64,000 nucleotides of DNA, taken from contig OY970223.1 in NCBI GenBank assembly GCA_963714015.1, forward strand, positions 256,001-320,000, read 5' to 3'. Positions 34,952 through 54,367 of the stretch are shown here, piece after piece; positions within the stretch are counted from its first letter, which is position 1; each line of letters begins with the position of its first letter. The notes below the pieces were generated by a model. The model saw only the letters and a program-made list of their open reading frames with translations, ran no database searches and was not told where the DNA came from. This DNA is from Vulcanimicrobiota bacterium. Its GTDB lineage: Bacteria; Vulcanimicrobiota; Vulcanimicrobiia; Vulcanimicrobiales; Vulcanimicrobiaceae. A program made the translations under genes and the position numbers.

Positions 34952-34963
34952 TCCGGCATTCGC

Positions 34964-36184
34964 ATGCGTTTTCCGTTTCTAACGCTGACCGGCATCCCGG
35001 TCAGGAACAAACGCGTCCTCGTGCGCGAAGATCTGAACGTGCCCATGAAGGACGGTCAAATCCTCGACTACAAGCGCGTGGACGCATCGCTCCGGACGAT
35101 CCGCTACTTGGCCGATCACGGTGCCAAGGTCATCATTATCTCGCACTTGGGCAGGCCCGACGGCAAGCCGAACCCCAAATACACGCTTCGTCCGGTTGCA
35201 GGCGCGCTCTCGCAGCGGCTGGGCATCGACGTGACGTTTGCGACCGACGTCGTGGGACCGGCGGCCCATGAAGCGATCGACGCGATCGCTTACGGGCAAA
35301 TCGTGCTGCTCGAGAACGTTCGCTTTGAACCGGGCGAAGAGCAGAACGATCCCGCGTTCGCGCGCAAACTGGCCGATCTCGCGGACGTCTACGTGAACGA
35401 CGCGTTCGGTACGGCGCATCGCGCGCATGCCTCGACGGAGGGCGTCGCGCGCTATCTTCCCAGCGCGGCAGGCTTCTTGATGGAAGCGGAGATTGCCGCG
35501 CTCACAAAACTGATCGACAACCCCGCTCGCCCGTACGTCTGCGTCATCGGCGGCGCAAAAGTCAAAGACAAAGTCGGCGTCTTCACCAAACTGATGGAGA
35601 GGGTGCAGGCATTCTGCGTCGGCGGCGGCATGGCGAACACGTTTCTCGCCGCGCGCGGCGTTGACGTCGGCAAATCGCTGCGCGATGACGATCTCGAACC
35701 GGCAAAAGCGATCTTGGAGTTCTCACGCGGCCGGGACGTCTCCATTCTGCTTCCGCTCGACGCCGTCGTTTCCACGAGCTTCGACAATGACGCCGGCGCG
35801 CACGTCGTCGATCTTTCGCAAGTCGGCGACTCTACGATCCTCGACATCGGACCGAAGACCGCTAACGAGTACGCGGGCATCATCGAGACGGCTAAGACCG
35901 TCGTCTTCAACGGACCGATGGGCGTGTACGAAAAGGAAGCATATCGCGAAGGCACGCGGATCGTCGGTGAGGCCATGAAACGCGCCACCGAGCACGGTGC
36001 AACGACGGTCGTCGGCGGCGGCGATGCGGCGGCCGCAGCGGATGAGTTGGGATTTGCCGAGCACGTGACGCATGTCAGTACCGGCGGCGGAGCGACGCTC
36101 GAGTTTCTGGAAGGCAAAGAGCTTCCGGGCATTAGGGCGTTAGTTCAAGCCGCCGGGCGCGCGCACGAAGGGGCGCGCGGGTGA
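34964..36184 (+). CDS. pgk: Phosphoglycerate kinase
   Basis: DLNVP, SHLGRP, LLENVRF, NDAFGTAHRAHAS, STGGGATLEFLEG. Confidence 0.98.
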   Translation: MRFPFLTLTGIPVRNKRVLVREDLNVPMKDGQILDYKRVDASLRTIRYLADHGAKVIIISHLGRPDGKPNPKYTLRPVAGALSQRLGIDVTFATDVVGPAAHEAIDAIAYGQIVLLENVRFEPGEEQNDPAFARKLADLADVYVNDAFGTAHRAHASTEGVARYLPSAAGFLMEAEIAALTKLIDNPARPYVCVIGGAKVKDKVGVFTKLMERVQAFCVGGGMANTFLAARGVDVGKSLRDDDLEPAKAILEFSRGRDVSILLPLDAVVSTSFDNDAGAHVVDLSQVGDSTILDIGPKTANEYAGIIETAKTVVFNGPMGVYEKEAYREGTRIVGEAMKRATEHGATTVVGGGDAAAAADELGFAEHVTHVSTGGGATLEFLEGKELPGIRALVQAAGRAHEGARG

Positions 36185-36936
36185 GAAGACGGATCTGCGC
36201 CGGCAACTGGAAGATGCACAAAACGGCCGAAGAGGCCGTCGCGTACGTCGAGCGTTTCGCCGAGCTTGCGCCGGGCATTCCGGAACGCGTCGAATTGGTT
36301 GTCTGCCCGGCGTTCACGGCGCTCGACGCTGCCGGCGTCGCGCTGAGGCAAATCCAAGGCGACGACGGCCGAATCAAACTCGGCGCGCAGAACATGCACT
36401 GGGAATCGTCGGGCGCATTCACGGGCGAGATTTCGGCGCCGATGCTGCAGGATTTGGGTGTCGAGTACGTCATTCTCGGCCATTCGGAGCGGCGTCAATA
36501 CTTCGGCGAAACCGATGAATACGTGCGCAAAAAGACGACTGCGGCCCTTGCGGCGGGGCTTACGCCGATCGTCGCCGTGGGAGAGTCGCTGGACATCCGG
36601 CGCGCGGGCGGAACGATCGATCACGCGACGATGCAGATCAAGAGCGCACTGGATGGATTGAGCCCTCAAGAACTTTCGCGGATCGCGATCGCGTACGAGC
36701 CGATCTGGGCGATCGGCACGGGCGAAAACTGCGATCCCGTTGAAGCGAACTCAGTGATGCGCACACTGCGCGGCTGCGTGCCGGGCCTGGAGAACGTGCC
36801 GATACTCTACGGCGGCAGCGTGAAACCCGAAAACATCGCCGAGTACGTCGCGCAATCCGATATCGACGGCGGTCTGGTCGGAGGAGCATCGCTCACGCCC
36901 GACGGCTTTGCCGCGCTGGCAAAGGAAGCGGCGTGA
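36181..36936 (+). CDS. tpiA: Triosephosphate isomerase
   Basis: AGNWKM, GHSERR, AYEPIWAIGTG, YGGSVK, LVGGAS. Confidence 0.98.
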   Translation: MRRRICAGNWKMHKTAEEAVAYVERFAELAPGIPERVELVVCPAFTALDAAGVALRQIQGDDGRIKLGAQNMHWESSGAFTGEISAPMLQDLGVEYVILGHSERRQYFGETDEYVRKKTTAALAAGLTPIVAVGESLDIRRAGGTIDHATMQIKSALDGLSPQELSRIAIAYEPIWAIGTGENCDPVEANSVMRTLRGCVPGLENVPILYGGSVKPENIAEYVAQSDIDGGLVGGASLTPDGFAALAKEAA

Positions 36937-38558
36937 ACTACCGTCCCATCGTGCTTGCAGTCCTTGATGGTTGGGGCTGCAGCGCGCAAACCTACGGCAA
37001 CGCGATTGCCGCTGCAAGGACGCCGCACTGGAACGCCTTCTTCGACAAATATCCTTGGACGATGCTCGAAGCCAGCGGTGAGGCGGTCGGTCTGCCGAAA
37101 GGCATCATGGGCAACAGCGAAGTCGGTCACATGAATCTCGGGAGCGGCCGCGTCGTTCCGCAAGGCGTCGTCATCATCAACGCCGATATCGCCGCCGGGG
37201 ACTTTGCGCGCAACGCCGTACTCAGTCAATGCATCGATCACACAAAACGCACGGGCGGAACGCTGCATTTCCTGGGACTGCTGTCCGACGGAAAAGTACA
37301 CAGCTCGCTCGACCACCTGCTGGAATTGATGAAGTGTGCGCACGCCGCGTCTGCACCGTTTGCCGTTCATGCGTTTTTGGACGGCCGTGATACGCCGCCG
37401 CGTTCGGCGGCAAAGTATCTGCAGCAAGTGGAAGATGCGCTCGGGCAGATGAATGAGCCGGGGGCGATTCGCACTGTCATCGGACGCTTCTATGCCATGG
37501 ATCGCGACAAACGCTGGGAACGCTCGCAGCTCGCGTACGACGCACTGGTGCTGGGCCAAGCCGAATTTCATGCCGCAACCGCCCTTCAAGCGCTGGAAGC
37601 CGGGTACGATCGCGGCGAAAACGACGAGTTCGTAAAGCCCACGATCGTCGGCCTGCGCCGCCCAATTCAGTCCGGAGACGCGTGCATCTTTTTTAACTTC
37701 CGTCCGGATCGTGCGCGCCAGCTGACCCTTGCCTTCAACGCGTCGATCGACGCTTGTCATCCCGAGCAGACTCCCGGTGCGCAAGCGCCGGACCGCCTCC
37801 TGACGAAGCGTCAGGATGGCGCCGGCGGAGAGGAAGGCTTCCCCGTCGCAGCGCTCTGCGACTTCATCTTCGCGACGATGACGAAGTACGATGAAACATT
37901 CCCGAACCCGGTGCTGTTTGGCCCGCGGCCGCAATTCGAAACGTTCGGGGAAATCGTTTCGGCGCAAGGGCTGCGGCAACTGCGCCTAGCGGAGACCGAA
38001 AAGTACGCGCACGTGACGTACTTCTTCAACGGGGGTCGCGAGGACGTATTCGAAGGCGAAGATCGCAAGCTGATTCCTTCCGACCGTTCCGTTGCGACGT
38101 ACGACTTGGCGCCGGAAATGCGGGCTCGCCAAATCACGGACTATGCCGTCGATCAGATTGCAGCCGGCACCTATGACGTGATCATTATGAACTATGCGAA
38201 CGCCGACATGGTGGGCCATACGGGCATGTGGGAACCGACGATCGAAAGCGTCCAAATCCTCGACGCATGTCTGCAGCGGCTGGTAGACGCGGTCTTAAAG
38301 GCCGGGGGCTTATTAGCGATCACCGCGGATCACGGCAACGCCGAAGAGAAAATCGACAAGGACGGCAACCCGCTTACTGCGCACACGACCAATCCCGTGC
38401 CGCTCATCTTCGTCGGGGACATCGCCGGCAAGCTTCGCGAAGGCGGAAAACTGGGGGATGTTGCGCCGACATTGCTGCGAATCATGGCGCTTCCCGTTCC
38501 GGATCGCATGACGGGCGACAACCTTTTCACGCCGGCGGCTTCAGCCGCTTTGCATTAA
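36933..38558 (+). CDS. gpmI: 2,3-bisphosphoglycerate-independent phosphoglycerate mutase (contains an in-frame insertion)
   Basis: LDGWG, MGNSEVGH, DGRDT, AETEKYAHVT, DMVGHTG, TADHGNAE. Confidence 0.97.
   Translation: MNYRPIVLAVLDGWGCSAQTYGNAIAAARTPHWNAFFDKYPWTMLEASGEAVGLPKGIMGNSEVGHMNLGSGRVVPQGVVIINADIAAGDFARNAVLSQCIDHTKRTGGTLHFLGLLSDGKVHSSLDHLLELMKCAHAASAPFAVHAFLDGRDTPPRSAAKYLQQVEDALGQMNEPGAIRTVIGRFYAMDRDKRWERSQLAYDALVLGQAEFHAATALQALEAGYDRGENDEFVKPTIVGLRRPIQSGDACIFFNFRPDRARQLTLAFNASIDACHPEQTPGAQAPDRLLTKRQDGAGGEEGFPVAALCDFIFATMTKYDETFPNPVLFGPRPQFETFGEIVSAQGLRQLRLAETEKYAHVTYFFNGGREDVFEGEDRKLIPSDRSVATYDLAPEMRARQITDYAVDQIAAGTYDVIIMNYANADMVGHTGMWEPTIESVQILDACLQRLVDAVLKAGGLLAITADHGNAEEKIDKDGNPLTAHTTNPVPLIFVGDIAGKLREGGKLGDVAPTLLRIMALPVPDRMTGDNLFTPAASAALH
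37755..37827. repeat. Palindromic REP-like element in frame within gpmI; partial relative at ~32708-32731
   Basis: TGTCATCCCGAGC...TCAGGATGGC ends, two internal hairpins; TCAGGATGRCGCCGGCG is shared with 32715-32731. Confidence 0.6.
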
Positions 38559-39303: not shown

Positions 39304-39441
39304 TCCTTCGGTGTGACAAAACTGCCATTCTGGTGCCATTTCGTCGGTTCCAACGAGAATTCGCGCGGGAGCAGTCGAAAGACGCGACCTCTGCTCTAAA
39401 GATAACCGCGTGAAAACATTTCTCGGAAAGGCTTGCGATTT

Positions 39442-40389
39442 ATGAGGCTCAGGTTGTTGCGCGCGCTCGGAATCGTTACGGCGGCGGCAATCGTTTCGGG
39501 CTGTGCGGGATCGGCGACCCATCTCTTCCCGTCACACTCGTCGGCCTTCGGGACCGAGTCCTATGATGCGTACTGTTCGACGCAATTCGCGTACGTTTCC
39601 AATATCGGCGCAAATACCGTCGAAGAGTTCCATCAAAGCGGACGCGCCCAACGGCCGATTGCAACGATTTCGGACGGCATATCGCATCCCGGCGGCTTAG
39701 CGACTGACGCAAAAGGGAATTTGTACGTCGACGATACCTCGCAGTATAACGGACACTGGGTCGTCCAGTTTTATCCGCCCGGCGCGACATCGCCCGGCAA
39801 AACATACACCAAAGACCTCTCCACGCCGTCGGACACCGTTGTTGCCAAAGACGGAACGATCTACACCGCCAACTTCAATAATTCGGCGGAAGGCTGGGTT
39901 GCCGTCTACCCCAAAGGAGACGTCTCCAAGGAATATCGCCTTTCCGATTTCGGCGGCGGTGCCCCCGTATTCGTTACGCTCGACCGGCAGCAGAATCTCT
40001 ACGTGGCCTACGAAGCCGGCGGCGGTTCCGGAGTCAAGAAGTACAAGCCCGGCGTGAAAACCGGACGAGACCTGAAGCTGAACTTCGGCGACGGCGGCGG
40101 CATACAGGTCGACTCGTCCGGAAATATCATCGTCGTCCAGCAATCGGAGCCTCCCGCGATCCTGATTTTTCCGCCTGGAAAAACGCAGCCGTCACGGACG
40201 ATAACGTTGCCGAACGGCGGAGAGCCGTTCAACATCGCACTCAACGCCGATGATTCGGCGCTCTTCGCAAGCGATTCAATCGGCAACGTGGTGGACCGCT
40301 TCGCTTACCCGTCCGGCGTATTCCAATATTTTCTTGCCGGAGGCTTCAGCAATCCCGAAGGAATCGCAACCGTTCCAACGGCGTATTAG
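39442..40389 (+). CDS. Secreted lipoprotein with NHL-like beta-propeller repeats
   Basis: Lipobox VSGC; repeats such as PGGLATDAKGNLYV and GIQVDSSGNIIV. Confidence 0.75.
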   Translation: MRLRLLRALGIVTAAAIVSGCAGSATHLFPSHSSAFGTESYDAYCSTQFAYVSNIGANTVEEFHQSGRAQRPIATISDGISHPGGLATDAKGNLYVDDTSQYNGHWVVQFYPPGATSPGKTYTKDLSTPSDTVVAKDGTIYTANFNNSAEGWVAVYPKGDVSKEYRLSDFGGGAPVFVTLDRQQNLYVAYEAGGGSGVKKYKPGVKTGRDLKLNFGDGGGIQVDSSGNIIVVQQSEPPAILIFPPGKTQPSRTITLPNGGEPFNIALNADDSALFASDSIGNVVDRFAYPSGVFQYFLAGGFSNPEGIATVPTAY

Positions 40390-40428
40390 ACTCGGCGTTT
40401 CCGTTTGACTTTCGACCGGAGGTTTTTC

Positions 40429-41451
40429 ATGTCTGCCGTTCCATTCCGCGCGTCAATTGCAGCCGTCGCTCTCGTTATTGCATCCGGGTGTTCGAACGCA
40501 AGCTTGCCTCCCTCTAACCATGCCTCGTCGTCATCGGTTTTGCGTGCGAGTCCGATGCTGCCCGGCATGCGCGGCGCGAGCGGCTTTATCGTGAAGGCCG
40601 CTCCGGCAACGACGCTGCCGCGTCCGTGGAATCTTCCACATGTTTGGCCCGCGCAAAGCGAAGTGCTGTTCGTCGCCGACGCTCAAAACAATCAGATTCT
40701 AATGTACGATCCCTTGACGCCGAATCCAACGCCGAAAGGTTCCATTACGGACGGCATAGACGACCCGTTCGGATTGGCGGTTGACAAAAACGGTACGCTC
40801 TACGTCGCGAACTTGGAGGGCGGAAAGCCCGACACCGGTTCGATTTCAATATACAAAGCCGGCTCCACTTCTCCCAGCTTGACGATCCGCAAAGGCCTCG
40901 ATAATCCGCTCGGAATCGCAGTAGACGGCCACGGCAGCGTTTTCGTGAGCAATCTGGACAACAATACCATCGCCGGTTATAAGGCAGGCGCGACCACACC
41001 GTTCGAGACAATCTCCTTCAGCCCATACGGTCAAGCGGGCGGAGTGGGTACCGATGCCGGCGGTAATCTCTGGATCGCCGACGCCTTTGCTAACTACGTC
41101 TACGAGATTCCGGCGGGGAAGACTACTCCGCAGAACGCCGGACTATCCGGGATCAACGGGCCGGCAAACATTGCGTTCGGTGAGGAAGACGTCATGTACG
41201 TTTCAAATTTTGCCGGCTCGGCGGTCAGTATCTTCAAGCACGGCAACACCACGCCGTGGGGATTGATTCTAAAAGGGATCGAAACGGATGGACCCACGTG
41301 GAGCGGATTCACGGCGTCGGACTATTATTTCCAATCGAATCAAAACGACGACGTCGTGGGATACAAAAAGGGTGCGACGTCGCCCTTCAGCACGATACGC
41401 GGCATTCCGAATCCGACCGGCATTGCATCGACGCCGCTCGTAACGAAGTAG
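40429..41451 (+). CDS. Secreted lipoprotein with NHL-like beta-propeller repeats
   Basis: RBS GGAGG, lipobox ASGC; PFGLAVDKNGTLYVAN, PLGIAVDGHGSVFVSN. Confidence 0.8.
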   Translation: MSAVPFRASIAAVALVIASGCSNASLPPSNHASSSSVLRASPMLPGMRGASGFIVKAAPATTLPRPWNLPHVWPAQSEVLFVADAQNNQILMYDPLTPNPTPKGSITDGIDDPFGLAVDKNGTLYVANLEGGKPDTGSISIYKAGSTSPSLTIRKGLDNPLGIAVDGHGSVFVSNLDNNTIAGYKAGATTPFETISFSPYGQAGGVGTDAGGNLWIADAFANYVYEIPAGKTTPQNAGLSGINGPANIAFGEEDVMYVSNFAGSAVSIFKHGNTTPWGLILKGIETDGPTWSGFTASDYYFQSNQNDDVVGYKKGATSPFSTIRGIPNPTGIASTPLVTK

Positions 41452-41475
41452 CTCGAGCCCCGGCGCTGCGTTTCG

Positions 41476-43037
41476 TTAGGTCGAATATGCAAACGTTGAG
41501 GAAGAACAGCCGGAGCAAGCAAAGGAGACGTTGTTTTGGCCCGGTTGCAGATCGAACGTCAACACCACGCCGGCGCGCCCGGCCGGCGTAACGCCCGGCC
41601 CTGAAATTTGGAGCGTTGCATTGTTGGCCCAAATCGCAAGTCCGTAATGCTCCGCGATCGGGGCTTGCAGAACGAAGTTGATGCGGCCGCCGCTCACCGC
41701 CGCATTGGTTAGAGTTGCCATTTCGCCGGGAGGCAAAGGACTGAATCCCACATTGAAGATCGAAACCGGGTCGTCCGAGTAACGGAAGAGCCTGGCCGGA
41801 ACGGAGTGACCGGCAATAAACGTCATGCCGGCTACGTCATCGTGGTAGTCGATCGTCGCCGGATAAAGTGTTTGCCCTCCAAGGATGGGCGAAGGCACCG
41901 GGGTTCCGCCCGGAATGTAGGGGAACGCGACGGCGCGTGGAGCGGCGGAGAATTTCCGGGCGTCGACGTCGGCTTGAGCTAGGGTCTCAGCCTTCATACC
42001 GTCGGCCGCGGCTTGGGAATACAGCGCGTGGAGAATCGAGGAGTCTCCCGGATCGAGATCTTCATCGCTCTCCTGCTGCGACATCATGACGAGACCTTGC
42101 GTCTCTCCGGCTGCCGCATACGCGTCGACAAGGCTGCGCGCGTAGCGTTCCGCCCCGTCCGTCGTGAAGCCGGCGCGCAGCTGCAGGTCGTCGGGATCAG
42201 TCGAGAAGTAGTACGAAAACCCGCTCAGATAGGCTCGCGTAAGATCGCGGGCCGTCCATTCGAAGGCGAGCATCGCGCAACTTCCGTCGGGAGCGGGTCG
42301 TTTGTACGAGGTTACATCGGCGCAATACGAACCCCACGGTGCGCCTACATCGTCGGTGTTGTCTACGCTGGATTGATTCCAAGCGATCCCCCAAAAGCCC
42401 GACTCACCGCGCGCCAGCGCCGCGGGAATATTTCGCTCGTGTCCGGCGCCTTCGACGCTTACCATGGGATGAAACCAGGAAAAATCGCTCTCCGCTTCTT
42501 CAAGCAAACTTTCGGGCGGCTCGACTTCTACGTCGTCGCCGTTCGCAGAATGATACGTGTTGTATAGCGTACTGTTTACAAAGTAAAGCGGATTGCCGAC
42601 CATCCACGTAATGGGCGTGTGGGTACCCGAAGCGGCCTGCTCGATTGACTCCATACCCGCGAGCGAATACGCTTCTTGCAGCGACGTGGCGACAAATAAT
42701 GCGCTGGTCGGCCCGGACGGCTTCGCCCACGCCGGAACGACGGCATTCGGATCCGAGCTCAATGTTGACGGACGCGCAGCGACTGCGCTTGACGTCAACC
42801 GGCGAGAACGCGCCGGCGGGAACGGTGTACCAGAGGACTCCATCATACGAAACGTCGCATGACTGATCGGCGCGATCGAAGATTCCCACCGAAACCGGCG
42901 CAGGCGGCACAACCGCCGTCCCGCCGCACGAAGAGATTCGCCAACGCGAAGCAGAGCGACGGCAATCGCCGGGAAGAAACGCCGCAGTTATATTCGCCGG
43001 CGTTTGGTTACGTTGAGCGCGCTCTGCAGTAGCCATA
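41476..43037 (-). CDS. Secreted (lipo)protein of unknown function, possibly carbohydrate-active (frameshifts near 42757 and the N-terminus)
   Basis: Joined frames give ..SSCGGTAVVPPAP.. followed by a long ORF with GFWGIAWNQ..D...DVGAPWGSY, FEWTARDL, STDPDD. Confidence 0.5.
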
Positions 43038-43046
43038 GAACTGCGG

Positions 43047-43652
43047 TTAGCCGATAATCTTCGAGACCAGTTCCGTACGGTTGCGGGAGTGCGTCTTGGC
43101 AAGAAGTTGCTTCACGTGAAAGATCGCGGTGGACTCGGCAATGTGGAGTTGTTCGGCGATTTCGCTATTCTTGGCGCCCCGGCTAATGAGGCGCAGCACC
43201 TGTCGCTCGCGCGCCGACAGCTTGAAGCGCGCGGCCAGCGCATCCATGTGCGCACGAACCTTGACACGCTCCGCGATCACCGCGTACGCCGCGTTCCCGG
43301 TCCCTTGTAAGCGCAGCAAGCGAACGACGATCGATCGATTCGGCGCCGCGCTGAGCACGTCGGCTTGTCCGTTCGTCGAAAGCGTGCGGCGCAGCAACGC
43401 CACGACCGTGCGTTCGATCAGCGGCGGCAGCGTCGTTCCGCCTTGCGGCATGCGGCAATCGCGCCGGCGTTCGTGCGGATCCTCACGATAATGCAGCACG
43501 TTGAGGAATTCATCCACAACGTACAATGCCGGCGTCGCGCGACGCCGGAGAAGGTCAAGTTCATTTTCCGCGATGCGGTCCTGGCGCTGTTCCGAGTCGC
43601 CTCCCACTAATGAGAGGGCGTCGAGGGGCGACGAGTCACTGTTCAGTTGCAT
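43047..43652 (-). CDS. LuxR-type HTH transcriptional regulator with an unassigned N-terminal domain
   Basis: LSARERQVLRLISRGAKNSEIAEQLHIAESTAIFHVKQLLAK...NRTEL. Confidence 0.9.
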   Translation of the reverse strand: MQLNSDSSPLDALSLVGGDSEQRQDRIAENELDLLRRRATPALYVVDEFLNVLHYREDPHERRRDCRMPQGGTTLPPLIERTVVALLRRTLSTNGQADVLSAAPNRSIVVRLLRLQGTGNAAYAVIAERVKVRAHMDALAARFKLSARERQVLRLISRGAKNSEIAEQLHIAESTAIFHVKQLLAKTHSRNRTELVSKIIG

Positions 43653-43742
43653 AACCCGCAGTTCTGAGAGTTAGAAATGCTGGGACACTTAGTTAGCATT
43701 GACATACATCGACACCTCGTTATTTATGACGGAGCGCTTATT

Positions 43743-43992
43743 ATGGTTTCGTATCGCACCCTCATTTTTGGAACTATCGCAGTAATCAGCGCGTCTGCTC
43801 CCGCAGTCGCCAGCGGCCTCAGTGCACTTCCCGGCCCACAGCAAGCCGTAGTTAGCAGTCAGGGCCTGAGCGCTCTGCCCGCAAAAACGAAGCCGCAAAC
43901 CGTCAAGCAGAGCTCCTCGGAGAACGTCGTCACTCTGGTTCTGCAGCGTCTCGGCCAGTTGGAGCGGCAGATTCTTCAGCCTGCACCGCTAA
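43743..43992 (+). CDS. Small secreted protein with a duplicated GLSALP motif (candidate peptide-signal precursor, ~82 aa after removing an extra C at ~43980)
   Basis: GGAG upstream; MVSYRTLIFGTIAVISASAPAVA signal-like N-terminus, then SGLSALPG...QGLSALPA. Correcting AGCCT to AGCT gives a stop at 43992 and removes the overlap with HD-GYP. Confidence 0.6.
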
Positions 43993-44006
43993 AGCGGCGC
44001 TCCGTT

Positions 44007-44967
44007 TCACGGGAGCACGACCTCAATCATCGCAGTAACTACAGCGGGATCGAAATGCGCGCCGCTGTGCCGTTTGAGTTCTTCCACCGCCACGGAAGGC
44101 GATAGAGGCTTGCGGTACGGACGGCGCGCTACCATTGCATTAAACGCGTCGGCTACGGCGACTATCCTGGCCGTCAATGGAATCCTCGAGTCTGTCCAGG
44201 CCGTCGGGATATCCCCGTCCGTCCATTCGTTCGTGATGCCATCGAACGGCCGGTAAAAAATCCTGGAGTTCCGGAAAGGACTCTATGGCGTCCACCCCAT
44301 CGAGTGTGTGACGGCGCATAATCTGCCACTCTGCGTCGCTCAAGGATCTCGGTGCGGTAAGGATTTCCAAAGGCGTGCGCACTTTACCGATATCGTGGAT
44401 CAAGCCGCTGCGCGATGCCAACAGCGTCTCCTCTCGGCTCATCGACATCTTCTTCGCGATACGGGAGCACCACATTCCGACCGCTCGCGAATGCTCTGCG
44501 GTAATCGTGTCGCGCTCCGATAGCTGAAACAGCACTTCATCGATTTTCGCATCGATGGAATCCAGAGCGAAGTGCTCTTCGTGGAAATTCAGCCGCGACG
44601 CGCTGACGGTTACATCGATACGATGTTGAAGCCGCTCGAGCGAATGAATGACCTCGCTATCCGATCCAAAATCCTGGATAAGGTGGTCCAATGCGGCGCT
44701 CACTGTACTCGTGAACACGCCGAAAAGGCCCTGTTCACGGGCATATCCGCGCAAAGATGCGGAGATCCAGGATACGATGTCCTCATCGTCGGAAGTTCTT
44801 ATCGTCTTAATCAGGTAGTCCAGTGCTCGATTACAAAGCGCGTCCGCAAGAACGGTCTGGCGTTCCGGCGACACGGATCGATTCAAAGCGACGCTGACGA
44901 TTCGCCGGCGGTCGAGCTCCAAGGATCGCCCGAGCGAGAGATCCTCCCAATGCGCATCAATGCTCAT
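44007..44967 (-). CDS. HD-GYP c-di-GMP phosphodiesterase (frameshift at 44191)
   Basis: TAEHS, IHDIGK, HHERMDGRGYPDGL; the shifted frame continues RIPLTARIVAVADAFNAMVARRPYRK...HFDP to TGA 44007. Confidence 0.9.
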
Positions 44968-47321
44968 GCCACGCTCACGATCGGTTGGAGAGGCAAAGCG
45001 GCGAAAACGGCGGCTAATCCGCCGAAGTCTTTCTCAGTGAGGACTTCTAGCGCATCCAGGAGTTCATTGTAGCCGCTTTCGTTCTCCCAACGATGCAAAA
45101 GCGCTCGCGCCGCATGAATAAGTGCCTGAGCTCTGGGCGAGCTCCCGGCGGCGGTGCCGACGACATTGCGAAGCCACAGCCGAGCTTCGGAACGCCGGCC
45201 GAGCAAGTAAAGAGCGATAAGCAGCATTACTTTCGAACGCACTGTGCGGCAGATATTAGATTGAATCGCCTTAATGCATTTTTCTGCTTCCAATACTGCC
45301 TTTGAAGCTTCGTCCGGGCGGCCTGCAGCCACCGCGTAGAATGCGATTTCGGCTAAGCGGAGGGCACGACGGTCATCGTTGGTTTGGCGCTCCACCGTAG
45401 GACTCAGAAGACGAAACGCCTCGAGAAAATCGCCCGAGGAGGCCAATCGAACAGCCTGTCCCGGAAGGAGCGCCTCGTCGATGGCTTGATCGGCATAGTC
45501 GACTTCGTACAAATCCATCATGCGTTCGACGCGGAGCAACGTCTGTAAGTCGCCCGTGTCGGCGGCGATATCGAAGGTGCCGAGCAAAGCGTAGAGCCGC
45601 AGCTTCTGCTCGCCACACTTAAGACCACAATCCCAGATCTTGTTCATCAAATCGAGAGACGATTTCATGTCGTCTTCAATTTCGTACGCCACGTTGTACA
45701 GCACGCTATAGGCTCGCGCAGCAACGTCGTAAAGACCGCACTCGGTCGCAAGATAGACGGCCCGTGCGCCATACTGCTTGGCGAGCACGGGATCACCGGT
45801 GAAGAGCGCCACCCATGCGGAATGCTGATAGATCTTCGCTTGCAAACTGGTGGTCGATGCGGCTGGTATCAAGCGCAGCGCTTGCGCGATCGTTTGATTC
45901 GCGTCGTCAAAACGGCCCGCAATTACGTAAGCGGTAGCAAGTGCTGAAAGCATTGAGGCCAGTAATTCGGTCGGGAGATCCGGCGTCTCGATATAGCGTT
46001 CCAAAATCTCGACGCTGCCGGCTCGCCCTTGACGAATTCTATCGAGGGCGTGATGGTAGGCGATCGTCGCTCGAATTTCCGGAGCAACGGCCAAGTCCAG
46101 AGCGTGAAGGTACCAAGAGTCCGACGTGTCGTGCCGGCCGGCTTGTGCTTCATCGATCGCGCGTAAGGCCATGAGCGTCGCGCTCTTGTGCAAACGCTCG
46201 TCGCCGGCCAGGCAGATTGCACGACGAATGAGGTCCAGATGGCCTTTATCGACGAGATCGAACCCGTGCTGAACGCAGATTCGGACTACGTTGGCGGCAT
46301 CTTCGCCGGCGGCAAATAGGCTCAGCGCGTCGGCGGTACGCCCGCATCGTTCCAAAAGCGAGGCGCCGTAGGTCATGGCGCTGCGGCGGCCGCCGCTGCC
46401 GGCGGGGCCGATGCGCTCGAGTAAAAAGCGGCGGAAAAGCTCGTGGAACACATACCGGCCCCCCGCGCGTGCGGAGAAAACCAACCCATTGCGTGCCAAA
46501 TCGCGCACGCGCTCGATGCACGTTGCCCAGGGGCTTTTTTCGAGCAGCTCCTCATCGATGTCCGTGAGTACGGCGGCGCCCATCAATAAACTCTGCACGT
46601 CCTCGCGGCAGCGGACGAAATACGCTTGCGCGAAAAATGCGTAGGTATGGTCCACAGGAACGCGGCCGCCGTCGAACACGTGCGCACCCAAGTGGAAGGC
46701 CGCGGGCCAGCCGCCGGTCAGGTTGTAAAGCGGCTCTAACAGATCGCGCGCGAGACCCGCATCGCCCGCAATGATCTCCGCCTCGGCGCGGGTAAAGCGC
46801 AGCTGCTCCGCATCGATGGTTGATATGTGCACGCCCGCTTTAGCCACTTCTTCCAGCGGCACGCTGTCTGCGTCACGGCTGGTGAATATCCAGCGCGTCT
46901 TCGGGGCGGAGCTCTGAATCAGGCGCGCCAGCAGCTGCCGAACCTGTTCGTCCGAACCAGCGTGATGCGCGTCTTCGATTGCAATCACTTCGGCGGTGGA
47001 TCCGCTCAAGTGATCCAGCAGCCAGACCGCGATCTCTTCGTACGGCTTGGGCGACTGCATTGCGTACTCGATCGCGCCTGGAAACGTCGTCTGCAGGCCG
47101 GGAATGACGCGCGCAGCGGCCTCGACGAATCCGCGAACGAAGGGCACGAACGTCTTGTAGCTCGCGCGCGCTTCATAATGAATCGCCGTCTTAGGCGTAG
47201 CGGCTAAGAATTGCCGAACGGCGACGCTCTTGCCGAATCCGGAACTCGCCGTGATAAGCGTCGCTCCGCTGTTCGTGTCGAACAGCGCGTCCAAGATGCG
47301 CGGCCTAGCGAGCAGCGCCAT
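44964..47321 (-). CDS. MalT-like STAND ATPase with TPR sensor, lacking a C-terminal HTH
   Basis: RPRIL, Walker A ASSGFGKS, Walker B IAIEDAH, LRFT..E, TGGWPAA, YVFHELFRRFL, helical TPR-like C-terminal half. Confidence 0.8.
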   Translation of the reverse strand: MALLARPRILDALFDTNSGATLITASSGFGKSVAVRQFLAATPKTAIHYEARASYKTFVPFVRGFVEAAARVIPGLQTTFPGAIEYAMQSPKPYEEIAVWLLDHLSGSTAEVIAIEDAHHAGSDEQVRQLLARLIQSSAPKTRWIFTSRDADSVPLEEVAKAGVHISTIDAEQLRFTRAEAEIIAGDAGLARDLLEPLYNLTGGWPAAFHLGAHVFDGGRVPVDHTYAFFAQAYFVRCREDVQSLLMGAAVLTDIDEELLEKSPWATCIERVRDLARNGLVFSARAGGRYVFHELFRRFLLERIGPAGSGGRRSAMTYGASLLERCGRTADALSLFAAGEDAANVVRICVQHGFDLVDKGHLDLIRRAICLAGDERLHKSATLMALRAIDEAQAGRHDTSDSWYLHALDLAVAPEIRATIAYHHALDRIRQGRAGSVEILERYIETPDLPTELLASMLSALATAYVIAGRFDDANQTIAQALRLIPAASTTSLQAKIYQHSAWVALFTGDPVLAKQYGARAVYLATECGLYDVAARAYSVLYNVAYEIEDDMKSSLDLMNKIWDCGLKCGEQKLRLYALLGTFDIAADTGDLQTLLRVERMMDLYEVDYADQAIDEALLPGQAVRLASSGDFLEAFRLLSPTVERQTNDDRRALRLAEIAFYAVAAGRPDEASKAVLEAEKCIKAIQSNICRTVRSKVMLLIALYLLGRRSEARLWLRNVVGTAAGSSPRAQALIHAARALLHRWENESGYNELLDALEVLTEKDFGGLAAVFAALPLQPIVSVA

Positions 47322-47323
47322 GG

Positions 47324-49080
47324 TTACGTCCTGTGAAACTGGAGCCAATTATCGAAATCGGACTCCGTGAGCGGGCTGCAGATATGATATCCCTGAAGGG
47401 CGCTGACGCCATGCGAGATCAGCCATTCTTGCTGCCAGGCTTCCTCGACGTTTTCGGCAATTACGCTCCACCCGAGGCGGTTTGCCGTTTCGATTACCGC
47501 AATCGACGAAAAGATGTTTTGGCCTTGAAGGGCATCCGGAATGATCCCGCGGCCGACTTTGACGAAATCCAGCGGAAGACGCGCAAGTACTTGCAGCGAG
47601 AGCCCCCCGCAACCAAAGCGGCTCAGACCGACGCGAAATCCGCGTGCGCGGCACGCTTCGATAAAATGCGTGTACTCTTTTTCATCGTTGGCGACGGCTT
47701 GCTCGGGAATCTCGACCATGATGTCGCCGCGGCCTTCGTGCGAAATCGCCAAGAGTTCTTCGTTGGGCTCGCTCACGTTCACGTGAATGGCGAGAGGCTG
47801 GCGCAGGCGCCGCAGCTTCGAGTGCTTCTCGATTGCCGTTGAAAAGACCCATTCCTCAATGCGGTTGAGCACGCGCTGGTCGCGTGACGCGTCCAGAAAC
47901 GCATGCGGGGAAAGCATGCCCATGCCGGGGTGCAGCCAGCGAATAAGCGCTTCAGCGCCGATTGCGCGTCCGGTCCGAGCGTCGATGATCGGCTGGTAGC
48001 AAAGGAAGAACTCACGCTCCATGTCCGTGTTCGCGAGCTGCGCTGCGAACAAGTGCTGGACGTGGCCGTTCTTCTCACCTCCGGCTCCGTAGAAGACGAA
48101 GCCTTCGCCGGCATGACGTTTGGCTTGATACATCGCCGCATCGGCGTGGCCAAGGAGTTCTTCCGCATTCACGCCGTCGCGCGGGTAAATTGCAATGCCG
48201 ACGCTCGCGCGAACGGCCGCTTTCACGCCTTCGTGCAAAATCGGTTCGCGCAAAGCTGCAAGAACGCGCCGAACGATTTGCACCAGCTGCGACTCGCCGC
48301 TGAACGAGGTCACCAGCAGCGCAAATTCATCGCCGCCGATGCGGCCGGCCATTTCGTGTTTGCGAAGCACGCTGCGCATGCGTTGCGCGGTCTGCGCGAG
48401 CGCCACGTCGCCGAACGCATGCCCGTACGTATCGTTGACTTCTTTGAAGCCGTCCAGGTCGACGTAGAAAAGCGCAATCTCGCCGTTGTTGCGCTCGGCC
48501 GAAGAAACCGCCACGGCGATTTGCTCGAGCGTGGCGGCGCGGTTATGCAATCCGGTGAGCGGGTCGGTGATGATTCGGCTGGAGATCTCCCGCTCTTTTT
48601 GAACTTTTTCCAGCAGGCGCGCAACGACGCGAGTAAGAACTTGACGTAGCGCGATTCTTCGTCCGAAACACCGATCTCACGCCGCGCCTTCCAGGCACAC
48701 AGCAGGATGTGCGTCTTGTCGTACACGGTGAGCGGCGCGACCAGCACCGAACGCAGCGGGATTGCCGTAACCAGCGGATGGACGCTCCAGATGTCGTTTT
48801 GATCCAAATCGTCGAGCACGAGCGGCTTGTCGATATCGGTCGCAAGTGCGCCCAGCGCGTATTCGGGTGCTCCGGCTGCCAAGGCAACGACGTGCTCGGC
48901 ATCCAGCAAGCCGACGCTCACGTACGAACGATCTTCGGTGTTGAAGAGCTCGACGTATTCACACTGCAATGCTGAAGCAGCTTCACCTAAAAGCGCGCGC
49001 AATTGAGCGTCGGATGATGTATCCGCGCCCAATGACAATTCCCACAGAGCTTGTAGCCGGTGGTGGTGGTCCCGCAGACT
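47324..49080 (-). CDS. GAF-GGDEF-EAL protein (degenerate EAL; 1-base deletion ~48635; start approximate)
   Basis: GAF-like HPLVTAIPLRSVLVAPL; TDPLTGLHNR, DLDGFKEVNDTYGH, GGDEF; EAL with SRFGCG in place of DDFGTG. Confidence 0.85.
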
Positions 49081-49212: not shown

Positions 49213-49509
49213 CTACTCTATACGATAGGACCCGCTCAAGTCTACCTCCAAACGGCGCCCGCCTACAGCAATGCTGCGGACATGGTGGTCCCAAAATGTA
49301 AGTATCCGTACCAAAACAGGACGCAGCCCGGCGATGATGATGCGCGCGCGCTGCGAGACGGCGACGGCATCCTTTACCCATTTCGGATGTTCGCGCGGGA
49401 GTGGGGGCGTGTCGAGCTCATCCTCCGGAATGAGAGGCAGAATTGGGAGGGGGCCGGTAACCGCCGGCTGGGGATAAAGGAGATTACTCTCCGGATCGAT
49501 GCGCGCCAT
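49213..49509 (-). CDS. Hypothetical protein overlapping the fliA stop
   Basis: AGGAG RBS, MARIDPESNLLYPQP...; no family recognised. Confidence 0.4.
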   Translation of the reverse strand: MARIDPESNLLYPQPAVTGPLPILPLIPEDELDTPPLPREHPKWVKDAVAVSQRARIIIAGLRPVLVRILTFWDHHVRSIAVGGRRLEVDLSGSYRIE

Positions 49510-50173
49510 GAATCTCCTTACGCAGGTTCCGAAGGGCCGCCAAATGCAACTGCGAGGCTCGCTGCGGCGATATCGCCATCGCCCGGCCAATCTGATGCAG
49601 TGATTGGCCTCGGAAGTAGTGCAGCGCTACGACGTACCGCTGCCGTACGGGAAGCCGCTTGAGCGCCGCGCGTACGCCGGCGCGCTCCTCGCGCCGCCCC
49701 GCGAGGAATGCCGGATCCCCACTCCAATCCCCCGACAGACTCTCGCCGGCCGGAAGGGGACCGTCGAGCGAGAGGGGAGCGTGGCAATACGCATGCAACG
49801 TGGCGCGCCGCAGCGCCGGCCGGCGCGCTTCCAGCTCGCTTTGGCTAAGCAGCTGGCCGGTAGTGCTGGCCACCTGGTAACGCTCGCGTTCCGCCTCGCG
49901 AACCTCGCGGCGGACGCGTTCGGAGACCGGGTCAAGTTTTCGTAAACCGTTGAGCATTGCGCCGGCAACGATATGTGCAGCGTACCGTTCCAGCGTCGGA
50001 CCGCGCGACGGATCGAACGAGTCCACGGCGCGGATCAACCCGACGCTGCCCTCGCCGACCAAGTCATCCAGATCGCTCCTCGGCACAACGCGCTGAACAC
50101 GGCGCGCAATCTTCTTGACGAGCGGAAAAAGCCGGCGAATCGTCGATTCGCGTTCATCCATCGGGCTAGCCAT
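49484..50173 (-). CDS. fliA: RNA polymerase sigma factor, FliA/WhiG family
   Basis: LVKKIARRV, DDLVGEGSVGLIRAVDSFDPSRG, GAMLNGLRKLD, region 4 SLHQIGRAMAISPQRASQLH; flagellar context. Confidence 0.75.
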   Translation of the reverse strand: MASPMDERESTIRRLFPLVKKIARRVQRVVPRSDLDDLVGEGSVGLIRAVDSFDPSRGPTLERYAAHIVAGAMLNGLRKLDPVSERVRREVREAERERYQVASTTGQLLSQSELEARRPALRRATLHAYCHAPLSLDGPLPAGESLSGDWSGDPAFLAGRREERAGVRAALKRLPVRQRYVVALHYFRGQSLHQIGRAMAISPQRASQLHLAALRNLRKEIHGAHRSGE

Positions 50174-50324
50174 CGCGGCGTTCCAAGAGCGATGCCAAAG
50201 CAGCAGTAAAACCCTGCGCGGCAATAGCTCCGAATTCACCGAAAGCGGATTGCATTGGCCCAAGCATCGGCTCGAAAAGCAGGGCTTCGAATTGTGCGCG
50301 CACGCGCGCGAGCGACGAATCCAT
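50166..50324 (-). CDS. 52-aa protein resembling the FlgJ rod-binding domain
   Basis: Manual translation MDSSLARVRAQFEALLFEPMLGPMQSAFGEFGAIAAQGFTAALASLLERRDG*; its stop overlaps the fliA start. Confidence 0.5.
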   Translation of the reverse strand: MDSSLARVRAQFEALLFEPMLGPMQSAFGEFGAIAAQGFTAALASLLERRDG

Positions 50325-52617: not shown

Positions 52618-53343
52618 TTACCCTCGCTGCAGGTTATCCGCAATACGCATCATTTCGTCCGCCGCTTGGACGCCTTTCGCATTCGCTTCGTACGCGCGCT
52701 GGGCGGCGAGAATCTGCATCATCGCCTCGACGATCGAAACATTCGACTGCTCGAGCATGCCGAAGCGGATGTGTGGTCCGCTCGATGCATCCGCATGAAT
52801 GGGCAAAGCCTTTCCCGATTCATGCGTCGCGAAGAACAGCGTTCCTCCCGAGGGCTGCAGATACTCCGGCGCGGTAAAGCGCTCGAGTTGAATATGACCG
52901 CAGTTGATTTTTCCTTTAGCGTTTGTCGCTAACACGGTTCCTTCCGGCGATACGGTTGCGGAGAGCGCGTCGGCGGGAATGCGAACGTTTTGCAGACACC
53001 AGCCGTCCGCATTTCGCAATCTACCGTCGGCAGATCGCGAGAACTGGCCGTCCCGGGTATACGCCGTTTGCCCGTCTTTCGTAACGGCGAAGAACCCTTC
53101 GCCTTCAATCGCCAGATCGAATGGTCCACCGCCGTGAGTGAGCCGTCCCTGCGCAAATTCGGTGCGTATTCCCGAGCTCGAAGTCCCGAGCATTTCGCCG
53201 TCCGGTGAAGCGACGCCGGCAAATTGCATCGTTGCGCCTTTGAAGCCGGCGACGTCGGCGTTGGCCAGATTGCCGGCGATGGTCTCCAGATTTTGCTGCT
53301 GCGCAGCCATTCCGCTGGCTGCGGCGTAAAGTGCGCGGTTCAT
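52618..53343 (-). CDS. flgG: Flagellar basal-body rod protein FlgG-like
   Basis: ALYAAASGM, NLANADVAGFK, DLAIEGEGFF, YTRDGQF, LEQSNVSIVEAM...AQRAYEAN.K...ADEM. Confidence 0.85.
   Translation of the reverse strand: MNRALYAAASGMAAQQQNLETIAGNLANADVAGFKGATMQFAGVASPDGEMLGTSSSGIRTEFAQGRLTHGGGPFDLAIEGEGFFAVTKDGQTAYTRDGQFSRSADGRLRNADGWCLQNVRIPADALSATVSPEGTVLATNAKGKINCGHIQLERFTAPEYLQPSGGTLFFATHESGKALPIHADASSGPHIRFGMLEQSNVSIVEAMMQILAAQRAYEANAKGVQAADEMMRIADNLQRG
52622..52677. repeat. 56-bp direct repeat, copy 2 (within the flgG 3' end)
   Basis: Identical to 51371-51426. Confidence 0.95.
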
Positions 53344-53942
53344 TTCAGCGCGCCCACTTGTGTGGCAGCGCGCTCGCGCGTTTGGTCGATTGCGGAAAGC
53401 ACTTTCTGCGCGGTTTCGAATGAGCGCTGTGCGGTCAGAACGTCCAGCATCTCGCCGATCGCATCGGCGTTCGAACCTTCTAAGAACCCGCTGCGAACGA
53501 TCGTTCCAGCGTGAAGCCGAAGGCGATCCAGCACAACGCCGTTGCGAACGACCGCGCCGTTCTTGTCGATGCGCGAACCGGCCGGAACCTGCACTGCTCC
53601 TTTCGATCCCAAAACGAGGTTGCCGCCAGCATCGACGAGCCTCCCGAAGCGGTCGAGCTCAAATGCACCATTGCGCGTCTGAGTTACCGAGCCGTCGGCC
53701 TTTCGAACGGAAAATGCGCCTTTCCCCACGATGGCGAGATCCAAATCACGACCCGTTCGCCGCAAAGGCCCCTGCTCATCACTAATAAACCGCTGCAGCC
53801 GTACGCCGTTTGTCGTCAGCGACCCCTTCAGCGCGCACTTTCGAAACCCGTCAGTCGATCCGTTCGCCAAGTTCGCCGCCGCCACGTCCAGGCGGGCTTG
53901 CGCCGCGGACATCGCACCGGCCGCCCATCCAATTCCATCCAT
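53340..53942 (-). CDS. flgF: Flagellar basal-body rod protein FlgF-like
   Basis: NLANGSTDGFRK, TGRDLDLAIVGKG.F, TRNGAF, GFLEGSN, AQRSFE. Confidence 0.75.
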   Translation of the reverse strand: MDGIGWAAGAMSAAQARLDVAAANLANGSTDGFRKCALKGSLTTNGVRLQRFISDEQGPLRRTGRDLDLAIVGKGAFSVRKADGSVTQTRNGAFELDRFGRLVDAGGNLVLGSKGAVQVPAGSRIDKNGAVVRNGVVLDRLRLHAGTIVRSGFLEGSNADAIGEMLDVLTAQRSFETAQKVLSAIDQTRERAATQVGALK

Positions 53943-53986
53943 GCGCGCATGATAGACGCAGCTTGTGTCCGAACCTTGAACGGCGT

Positions 53987-54367
53987 ATGTCGACGGCTCG
54001 CACATCCATCCTGATCGGCTTCACATTGGCTGCTTGCGCTCTCGCGCTGCCTGCCTGCAGCGGCGGCACGAGCAGTTCGGCGAATCCAACCTTGGATCGC
54101 GAACAGCAGCAAGCCGCTACGCTCAAGAAACGCTACCCCGACGTGATCATGGGTACCGACGTACAGAACCGTACCCTGGCGGTCTACGTCAACGTCGACA
54201 ATATGTACTCGATGGACGAAGCCGCCGAAGCGGCAATGAAAGCGGACGCCTTGGCGCAATGGAAGCGCGTCTGGGCTTCGGCGCATGCGCATAAGCACGC
54301 GCTTTTGCGTCTGTCGGTCCGCGATTACTACGGCAAAGAGATCTACTCCGCATCCGCGCGCATCTGA
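53987..54367 (+). CDS. Hypothetical lipoprotein
   Basis: Lipobox LPAC after a hydrophobic leader. Confidence 0.6.
   Translation: MSTARTSILIGFTLAACALALPACSGGTSSSANPTLDREQQQAATLKKRYPDVIMGTDVQNRTLAVYVNVDNMYSMDEAAEAAMKADALAQWKRVWASAHAHKHALLRLSVRDYYGKEIYSASARI

Follow-up and report, generated by a model that had tools for sequence, protein, structure and literature searches.

A conserved cassette of Candidatus Baltobacteraceae combining a repeat pre-peptide, a STAND NTPase without a DNA-binding domain and cyclic di-GMP enzymes: a candidate peptide signalling system

The 64,000-nucleotide (nt) stretch of contig OY970223.1 analysed here (the window) carries, from position 43047 to about 49080, a cassette of five genes: a predicted secreted repeat pre-peptide, a small LuxR-family regulator, and an operon encoding a STAND NTPase and two enzymes of cyclic di-GMP (c-di-GMP) turnover. 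The locus is a conserved, lineage-specific module of Candidatus Baltobacteraceae, and represents a new combination of known modules together with a new peptide family. In our preferred reading, to which we give an even chance, the peptide is a signal read by the STAND protein, which would act on c-di-GMP through an HD-GYP phosphodiesterase (with the GGDEF cyclase), the PAS-LuxR regulator closing a transcriptional loop. Its source is a soil metagenome-assembled genome (MAG) assigned to Candidatus Baltobacteraceae (Eremiobacterota), which consists of one closed contig of 3.56 Mb and has an estimated completeness of only 89.6%.

On the minus strand, the cassette runs from the GAF-GGDEF-EAL gene through the STAND NTPase to the HD-GYP gene and, beyond a gap of ~355 nt, to a LuxR-family gene of 201 amino acids (aa). 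All four large genes, LuxR included, share a single orientation, and the gap is occupied by a small open reading frame (ORF) on the plus strand. The features of the cassette are as follows.

47324..~49080, minus strand: GAF-GGDEF-EAL gene (Pfam GGDEF 6.6e-45, EAL 5.6e-45, weak GAF_2), in two frames near 48633.
44964..47321, minus strand: MalT/LAL-type STAND NTPase without helix-turn-helix (HTH) domain and with a C-terminal TPR-like sensor, 785-794 aa (785 from ATG 47321); Pfam AAA_22/AAA_16/TPR_12.
44007..44967, minus strand: predicted HD-GYP phosphodiesterase with a helical N-terminal domain of ~135 aa; Pfam HD_5/HD, split over two frames.
43743..44105 as written, plus strand: small ORF, predicted secreted repeat pre-peptide, recognised by its ribosome-binding site (RBS) and codon bias.
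43653..43742: divergent control region between the LuxR and pre-peptide genes, 90 nt, with boxes TATGCTA and AGCTCTCAGAA.
43047..43652, minus strand: small LuxR-family regulator with a PAS-like domain (residues ~40-130) and a GerE HTH (145-197); Pfam GerE 1.8e-14, AlphaFold2 model, Foldseek.

The stop codon of the GGDEF-EAL gene (47324-26) is separated by 2 nt from the STAND start codon (ATG 47321), and the STAND TGA overlaps the HD-GYP ATG within an ATGA at 44964-67. A preliminary description of the locus, made from the sequence alone, had reported three coupled minus-strand genes with precisely these junctions, and all of the genes and junctions are confirmed. It left unmentioned that the GAF/GGDEF-EAL gene (~48633) and the HD-GYP gene (~44190) are frameshifted, and its start for the small ORF, at 43677, gives way to the conserved start, ATG 43743.

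Relatives of the locus were found with two LuxR-HTH patterns across 185,579 species representatives, yielding 26 loci, 20 of which are assigned to Candidatus Baltobacteraceae, Eremiobacteraeota, Vulcanimicrobiota or, in three cases, an uncultured bacterium. The HD-GYP and STAND genes lie directly upstream of LuxR in 18 of these 20 Eremiobacterota loci (tblastn), providing the co-occurrence for which the preliminary description had proposed a synteny survey. In one of the two exceptions the contig ends at LuxR, and the other is a remote LuxR (36% identity) that lacks the cassette. Among the 18 loci, the GAF-GGDEF-EAL gene is found upstream in 13, has moved downstream in two and is replaced by a different EAL protein in one, while in the remaining two the contig ends first. 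The repeat-peptide ORF is present in every HD-GYP/LuxR gap (18/18), and its first nine residues are visible at a contig edge in a nineteenth locus (L024). On metagenome contigs of the Joint Genome Institute, some of which duplicate genome loci, the small ORF was recognised by its start motif in 11 of 13 LuxR-orthologue loci; together with one locus with a variant start (L094), this amounts to all 12 assessable loci. A metagenome scan returned 16 loci, three of them with the full cassette. The arrangement is far beyond chance, as it was found again in every related locus examined.

The small ORFs of all 18 gaps are antisense to the operon and start with M-x-S-Y-(R/K)-T-hydrophobic-hydrophobic-F. 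Their products adopt a common layout, in which a Sec-type signal peptide ending in A-x-A, judged by inspection (K/R in the n-region, hydrophobic core, A-x-A), is followed at once by the first copy of a 7-residue core. Each precursor harbors 2-8 core copies with spacers of 1-10 residues, the shortest repeat unit being 8 residues, and most precursors end with a conserved amphipathic tail, which differs between subclades. The window pre-peptide has its signal peptide at residues 1-23 (...A-V-A), followed by two cores, (S/Q)GLSALP, and the amphipathic tail. The cores are near-identical inside one precursor and divergent between species, with examples such as DSASAVP, DSVPAIP, DSVTAKP, DIPHAMP, AGPKAQP, DVLQPQP and TSNSAAP; common to most are an A at position 5 and a P at position 7 (A-x-P end). 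Such an organisation, at the level of sequence, matches that of a pheromone precursor with multiple copies. Two loci, at L025:5371-5490 and L094:6763-6921 (both on the minus strand), encode a shorter pre-peptide with two Cys-containing cores (DCGHALP, DCPHALP) and no tail.

Evidence that the small ORF is translated comes from its RBS and codon usage. In 18 of 19 loci, a GGAG-type RBS precedes the ATG by no more than 20 nt, and in the window GGAG lies 8-12 nt ahead of it. Over the first 17 codons, the numbers of variable columns at codon positions 1, 2 and 3 are 10, 5 and 16, and the window differs from each of the congeners G001 and G002 by nine synonymous codons and one non-synonymous codon. 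When 5.8 billion proteins were searched with a profile, 56 small-ORF protein clusters were returned, annotated as 'hypothetical protein' where named and as Baltobacteraceae where a taxon is given. The pre-peptide motif occurs a single time in the whole window genome. Scans of the Pfam and NCBIfam libraries assigned no family to the small ORF, its scores in the ESM Atlas did not exceed 0.80 and revealed no meaningful neighbour, and its Atlas model is disordered (predicted local distance difference test, pLDDT, 0.32). These signatures identify the small ORF as a genuine gene, belonging to a previously unnamed family of at least 56 clusters. Two other assignments were considered and rejected. An exosortase/PEP-CTERM-type sorting signal in the tail was dismissed by inspection, given that the tail has no clean transmembrane segment with a basic cluster and varies by subclade, and a ribosomally synthesised and post-translationally modified peptide precursor was dismissed since no modifying enzyme is conserved within or beside the cassette.

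The STAND protein matches NCBIfam MalT over residues 11-408, with 66.3 bits against an equivalog cut-off of 537. Across 26 STAND orthologues, the Walker A residues G37, G39 and K40 are invariant, and the Walker B residue D126 is nearly so. GerE is absent from the window STAND and from 23 orthologue clusters (631-797 aa, two of them partial), in agreement with the earlier assignment of a MalT-like STAND without DNA-binding domain, and is present in five paralogue clusters (823-886 aa). The paralogues of G001 and G002 run on past the terminal motif of the focal STAND into a linker and a LuxR HTH.

The HD and HHExxDGxGYP motifs are invariant in 13 aligned HD-GYP sequences. An AlphaFold2 model of the G001 HD-GYP protein (pLDDT 89) matched DvhD (9rbz, c-di-GMP-bound), PA4781 (4r8z) and PmGH (4mcw) in Foldseek at E ~1e-8; the matches covered the catalytic part only, with no specific structural match for the all-helical N-domain of ~135 residues. 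The window protein has the motifs and, as far as the model predicts, the fold of an HD-GYP phosphodiesterase. In one short-read MAG (L035), the orthologous STAND and HD-GYP form a single ORF of 1211 aa, in which the entire HD-GYP, including its N-domain, aligns with the separate orthologues. When this fused protein was searched against 1.84 billion cluster representatives, full-length fused representatives were returned at 71% identity (P0085, 1100 aa) and at 33-37% identity (P0093, 1080 aa; P0095, 1102; P0091, 1002; P0097, 982; P0098, 960). Partial fused relatives were also returned, and HD_5 is C-terminal in all fused relatives. Within a phylum sample of 251 genomes, a tally that includes the unpublished genomes G023, G223, G241 and G254, STAND~HD-GYP matches (E <= 1e-60) were obtained for 68 of the 160 genomes from the window's family (window genome excluded) and for 0 of the 90 genomes from the twenty other families. 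The 12 paralogous loci retrieved all have STAND either next to HD-GYP or fused to it. A functional coupling of STAND and HD-GYP is supported by the translational coupling through ATGA and by the natural fusions in L035 and several other clusters, so that the STAND, called 'effector-less' in the preliminary description, does have a putative effector. This predicted role of HD-GYP is the best-supported mechanistic link in the cassette.

Two further STAND modules beside HD-GYP genes are present in the window genome (G000), outside the window: L054 (G000:C1:2290753-2295699) and G000:C1:2172733-2176561. In one of them, an uninterrupted open frame spans STAND and HD-GYP, a fusion that is provisional given the indels of this assembly. 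The other consists of an LAL with HTH followed by a separate HD-GYP gene.

A comparison of the window proteins with those of the two congeners, among which the peptide cores are unrelated, offers a view of which parts of the cassette change along with the peptide. The identities of the window to G001 / G002 are given below.

GGDEF-EAL: 88 / 88%.
LuxR PAS-like domain: 88 / 83%.
LuxR HTH: 94 / 91%.
STAND NTPase: 81 / 80%.
STAND sensor (401-794): 56 / 59%.
STAND last 94 residues: 46 / 41%.
HD-GYP N-domain: 48% (G001 only).
HD-GYP catalytic part: 73% (G001 only).

Among these close relatives, the fastest-diverging set comprises the peptide, the STAND sensor and the HD-GYP N-domain. As the STAND sensor diverges fast while LuxR stays conserved, this correlation among three kin argues for STAND rather than LuxR as the specificity-bearing partner of the peptide.

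The GGDEF motif of the cyclase is intact (RIGGDEF or RVGGDEF) in eight of eight orthologues and reads RIGGDEF in the window. The EAL domain is degenerate, as had been described. Against reference motifs that we take to be DDFGTG (Asp pair), KxD and EGVE, the window protein has S-R for D-D, K-V-G and E-N-V-E, having lost the metal-binding Asp pair and other ligands, and its orthologues are likewise degenerate. This domain probably serves for binding or docking.

The LuxR regulator, previously presented as a stand-alone LuxR, is indeed a separate gene but not a bare HTH. Its AlphaFold2 model (pLDDT 75) displays a PAS-like domain of beta-beta-alpha-beta-beta-beta topology followed by the HTH. The top Foldseek matches are EL222, CviR, VqmA, RhlR and SdiA, at E-values of 6e-6 to 3e-4 and template modelling scores (TM-scores) of 0.26-0.34, and thus include acyl-homoserine-lactone receptors, but the autoinducer-binding domain that precedes GerE in such LuxR-type receptors was not detected by Pfam at E <= 0.01. 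A loop at LuxR residues 61-65 (window 43458-43472, minus strand), E-R-R-x-D/E, is kept in 16 of 16 orthologues and is RxxD-like; that it might bind c-di-GMP is pure speculation. LuxR and the pre-peptide gene diverge across 39-257 nt (90 nt in the window). By inspection of 18 intergenic sequences, rather than statistically, the boxes TATGCTA and AGCTCTCAGAA-like are kept across genera and can be regarded as candidate promoter or operator elements.

The surroundings of the cassette vary more than the cassette itself. The genes upstream of it in the window are the following.

49484..50263, minus strand: FliA/WhiG-like sigma factor (Pfam; NCBIfam).
52618..54005: two FlgF/G-type rod genes (Pfam).

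The fliA and rod genes named in the preliminary description are recovered here insofar as the sigma factor has FliA/WhiG as its top NCBIfam match and the rod genes are of FlgF/G type, but the sigma factor scores 112.7 bits, below the curated cut-off of 189.6. By tblastn, a FliA-like sigma factor is found upstream of the cassette in L019, L020 and L021 only. With flanks unconserved beyond close relatives, the five genes constitute a self-contained module, and the flagellar neighbourhood is local. On the other side, a PNP-family gene directly follows LuxR in L019-L023. In the window, two NHL-repeat genes and a 478-aa ORF without family match intervene between LuxR and the PNP-family gene (39433-42912); given the arrangement in L019-L023, this block looks like a local insertion. 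Further away, at 33938-38558 on the plus strand, lies a compact glycolytic row of glyceraldehyde-3-phosphate dehydrogenase, phosphoglycerate kinase, triosephosphate isomerase and cofactor-independent phosphoglycerate mutase. In other members of the lineage, SBP_bac_5 (Opp/Dpp-type) and phosphoribosyltransferase genes lie directly upstream of the cassette in six loci (L026, L027, L029-L032), and an M16 (insulinase-type) peptidase takes the upstream position in two (L033, at 708-3392, and L034). These neighbours may serve the cassette in transport or processing, or their position may simply reflect inherited synteny.

Three genes of the window are out of frame, namely GAF/GGDEF-EAL, HD-GYP and the tail of the small ORF. 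The GAF and GGDEF-EAL parts occupy different frames, with the switch between 48590 and 48676 (~48633). In HD-GYP, positions 8-121 and 108-170 of the HD_5 profile fall into two frames, and a 1-nt break near 44190, just past the GYP motif, cuts this motif off from the last ~60 residues. Past 43979, the tail of the small ORF no longer aligns in register with that of any relative; removal of one base after this position would bring the stop to TAA 43990-92, 14 nt from the HD-GYP stop (44007-09). The orthologues of GAF-GGDEF-EAL (588 aa in both G001 and G002) and of HD-GYP are intact. To place these breaks against the rest of the assembly, the longest ORFs of two G001 regions, with nested and antisense ORFs dropped by judgement, were compared with the syntenic DNA of the window genome, and 5 of 16 genes proved to be split between frames, about one break per 4 kb, housekeeping neighbours included. 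A Logan contig of the soil-metagenome run X1 (depth ~3), which possibly stems from the same sample as the assembly and is then not fully independent, has an extra base behind 48633, within the GAF/GGDEF switch zone, and X1 contigs have one base fewer at 49078. No RNA data set was listed for the stretch, and the runs X2 and X3 yielded only short, unlike pieces. Split STAND matches also occur in other long-read-style MAGs of the lineage (L027, L030, L031, L034), and each break is flanked on either side by protein sequence highly identical to the intact orthologues. The low completeness estimate for a closed contig points the same way. The frame breaks are thus very probably assembly indels, the genes being intact in the organism. 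As single-base indels are frequent (e.g. 43980, 44190, 48633, 49078), any ORF-based reading of the window genome should allow for them.

We hypothesize that the cassette operates as follows. The pre-peptide would be exported by Sec, its signal peptide cut at A-x-A, and the 2-8 units trimmed to peptides of 7-8 residues ending in A-x-P. The peptide would accumulate outside, be re-imported and bind the C-terminal TPR-like sensor of the HTH-less MalT-like STAND; the window genome holds about ten genes for binding proteins of Opp/Dpp type, all of them generic. Once ligand-bound, the STAND might switch and oligomerise in the manner of MalT and NLR proteins and control the HD-GYP phosphodiesterase, the direction of control being presumed. 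HD-GYP, together with the GAF-GGDEF-(degenerate EAL) cyclase, would set the level of c-di-GMP. The PAS-LuxR, divergent from the pre-peptide gene, would give a transcriptional output, probably a feedback on peptide production.

Several observations weigh against this scheme. Analogy and the pattern of divergence are the basis of the proposed link from peptide to STAND. Physically, the peptide gene pairs with LuxR via the divergent promoter, not with STAND. The conserved C-terminal tail of the pre-peptide is not accounted for, the window peptide carries two core copies only, and the TPR call is a TPR_12 match below the gathering score (22 vs 30.1 bits). The cassette includes no conserved protease, exporter or importer of its own, the SBP_bac_5 and M16 neighbours being restricted to subclades. 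The related loci are kin, so locus counts overstate the independent support, and of the three frame-break sites the X1 reads cover the one at 48633, those at ~44190 and ~43980 lying outside coverage. In addition, all 12 paralogous STAND/HD-GYP modules are devoid of LuxR and of a peptide ORF (by our own filter, whose single match is a membrane protein). STANDs of this family therefore evidently accept other inputs (MalT itself is a sensor of a sugar, maltotriose), and the peptide linkage is specific to the focal orthogroup rather than a property of the STAND family. The split peptide-sensing system envisaged in the preliminary description persists in part: the orthologous cassette is conserved, with peptide ORFs beside the STAND homologues in every one of the 18 genome loci and of the 12 metagenome loci that could be assessed, but its 'effector-less' STAND does not hold, and neither does a peptide linkage across the STAND family, with 0 of 12 among the paralogous modules. 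Peptide binding, the role of LuxR and an effect on motility were proposed there as well and have the standing of inference.

The main rival explanation, unlikely in our estimation, is that the peptide is an output. The STAND would then sense an intracellular or other unrelated ligand, in the way that MalT responds to maltotriose, and tune c-di-GMP via HD-GYP; PAS-LuxR would turn on the peptide gene, and the secreted proline-rich repeats would act extracellularly as a matrix, surface-active, adhesive or antagonistic peptide. This would suit the 12 paralogous modules without peptide gene, the control region that the peptide gene has in common with LuxR and not with STAND, the conserved amphipathic tail, which is superfluous for a pure pheromone precursor, and the disordered Atlas model. 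On the other hand, the identity of cores within a precursor and their strong divergence between species typify signal/receptor specificity, not structural repeats, and the STAND sensor and HD-GYP N-domain diverge in step with the peptide while LuxR and GGDEF-EAL are conserved. Moreover, the peptide gene has never been seen outside the cassette, with one copy only in the window genome. Rather improbable is a PAS-LuxR that itself is the receptor of the peptide or another small ligand, as in divergent pairs of VqmA or Rgg/SHP type, the operon being a neighbouring c-di-GMP module that is regulated by LuxR or feeds it, e.g. through c-di-GMP binding LuxR. The divergent LuxR/peptide pair with its conserved boxes, a fold like that of ligand-binding PAS/LOV-HTH and LuxR-type quorum-sensing receptors (EL222, VqmA, CviR, RhlR) and the conserved E-R-R-x-D/E loop in the N-domain speak for it. 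Yet the PAS-like domain, 83-88% identical among congeners with unrelated cores, is unlikely to set peptide specificity, the Foldseek TM-scores are low, and PAS domains, to our knowledge, rarely bind oligopeptides.

Defence STANDs have a similar architecture, combining a STAND NTPase, a TPR sensor and an effector encoded apart, and the protein could in principle be an Avs-like antiviral STAND, its TPR sensor recognising a phage protein. This we regard as extremely improbable, as PADLOC matches no family for STAND and none for GGDEF-EAL, with matches of HD-GYP and LuxR limited to generic HD and HTH, the gene order is stably and vertically kept in many genera of a single family, and the partners are c-di-GMP enzymes and a transcription factor. 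The three frame breaks inside 6 kb, two of them beyond read coverage, might also be real and the locus a decaying, pseudogenised remnant. This, too, is very improbable in view of the similar breaks in 5 of 16 genes compared, the X1 read-derived contig that restores the frame at 48633, the split STAND matches in MAGs of the same naming series, and the high identity to intact orthologues on either side of the breaks.

Quorum sensing by peptides that act on cytoplasmic receptors is considered a Bacillota trait, and bacterial switches of STAND/NLR type are known as transcription factors (MalT/LAL) or immune sensors. The cassette would join both, with a STAND switch that reads a secreted peptide and acts on c-di-GMP. 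Eremiobacterota are abundant in soils and almost uncultured. It is conceivable, though we would put it somewhat short of an even chance, that the cassette represents a new class of cell-cell signalling outside Bacillota, in which a hypervariable heptapeptide, present in as many as eight copies per Sec-exported precursor, is read by an NLR-like STAND with HD-GYP as its effector. If true, no earlier peptide pheromone system would have a STAND receptor or a direct second-messenger output, and the uncultured phylum Eremiobacterota would gain its first candidate for quorum sensing. Pherotypes among soil populations would then be defined by the rapid co-diversification of peptide and sensor. Independently of the peptide link, the recurrent pairing and fusion of STAND and HD-GYP adds a new regulatory input to the HD-GYP family, and the multi-copy heptapeptide precursors form a previously unnamed protein family. 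As the components are small and soluble, the hypothesis is directly testable with synthetic peptides and recombinant proteins.

In a search of the literature, with most subscription journals outside its range, RRNPPA and RcbAB emerged as analogues, and no description of the cassette architecture was found. Taken part by part, the cassette resembles several known systems. With MalT and the LAL proteins, canonical paralogues of which occur in the same genomes, the protein shares its layout: a STAND NTPase with Walker A/B at the N-terminus, an arm region, and a sensor of helical repeats at the C-terminus. Unlike them, it lacks the C-terminal LuxR HTH, ending exactly before the linker of the paralogues, and its HD-GYP effector is separate or fused. 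The LuxR regulator, in turn, has the PAS-like sensor followed by a GerE HTH that is known from one-component PAS/LOV-LuxR-HTH proteins such as VqmA and EL222, but without family membership at the sequence level and with low TM-scores. The proposed flow from a cell-cell signal through c-di-GMP degradation by HD-GYP to transcription, motility or biofilm formation is reminiscent of RpfC/RpfG signalling through diffusible signal factor in Xanthomonas. In that system a histidine kinase senses a fatty acid, and the HD-GYP protein carries a receiver domain; here, the signal would be a peptide and the sensor a STAND NTPase, with an HD-GYP that has a helical N-domain and no receiver.

The two analogues from the literature are closest in other respects. 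In RcbAB of Vibrio vulnificus, operon-encoded TPR-domain proteins modulate a c-di-GMP enzyme and motility (PMC12282931). RcbAB is described without NTPase or peptide gene, its TPR domains acting on a GGDEF cyclase at the flagellar pole, unlike the arrangement in the cassette. The closest published parallel is offered by the Rap-Phr systems with tandemly duplicated Phr propeptides (PMC11343458). Like the RRNPP(A)/Rap-Phr systems of Bacillota, the cassette places a small gene for a Sec-exported propeptide beside a cytoplasmic repeat-domain receptor, with several pheromone copies per propeptide and quick diversification of peptide and receptor (PMC11343458, PMC9765709). In contrast to them, the candidate receptor here is a P-loop STAND NTPase of MalT/LAL type, rather than a TPR-only protein with HTH or a Rap-type bundle, and the predicted output is a c-di-GMP phosphodiesterase/cyclase, where those systems employ an HTH or a phosphatase. 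The peptide gene converges on the operon and is transcribed away from a separate LuxR gene, the copies number up to eight, and the phylum is Eremiobacterota.

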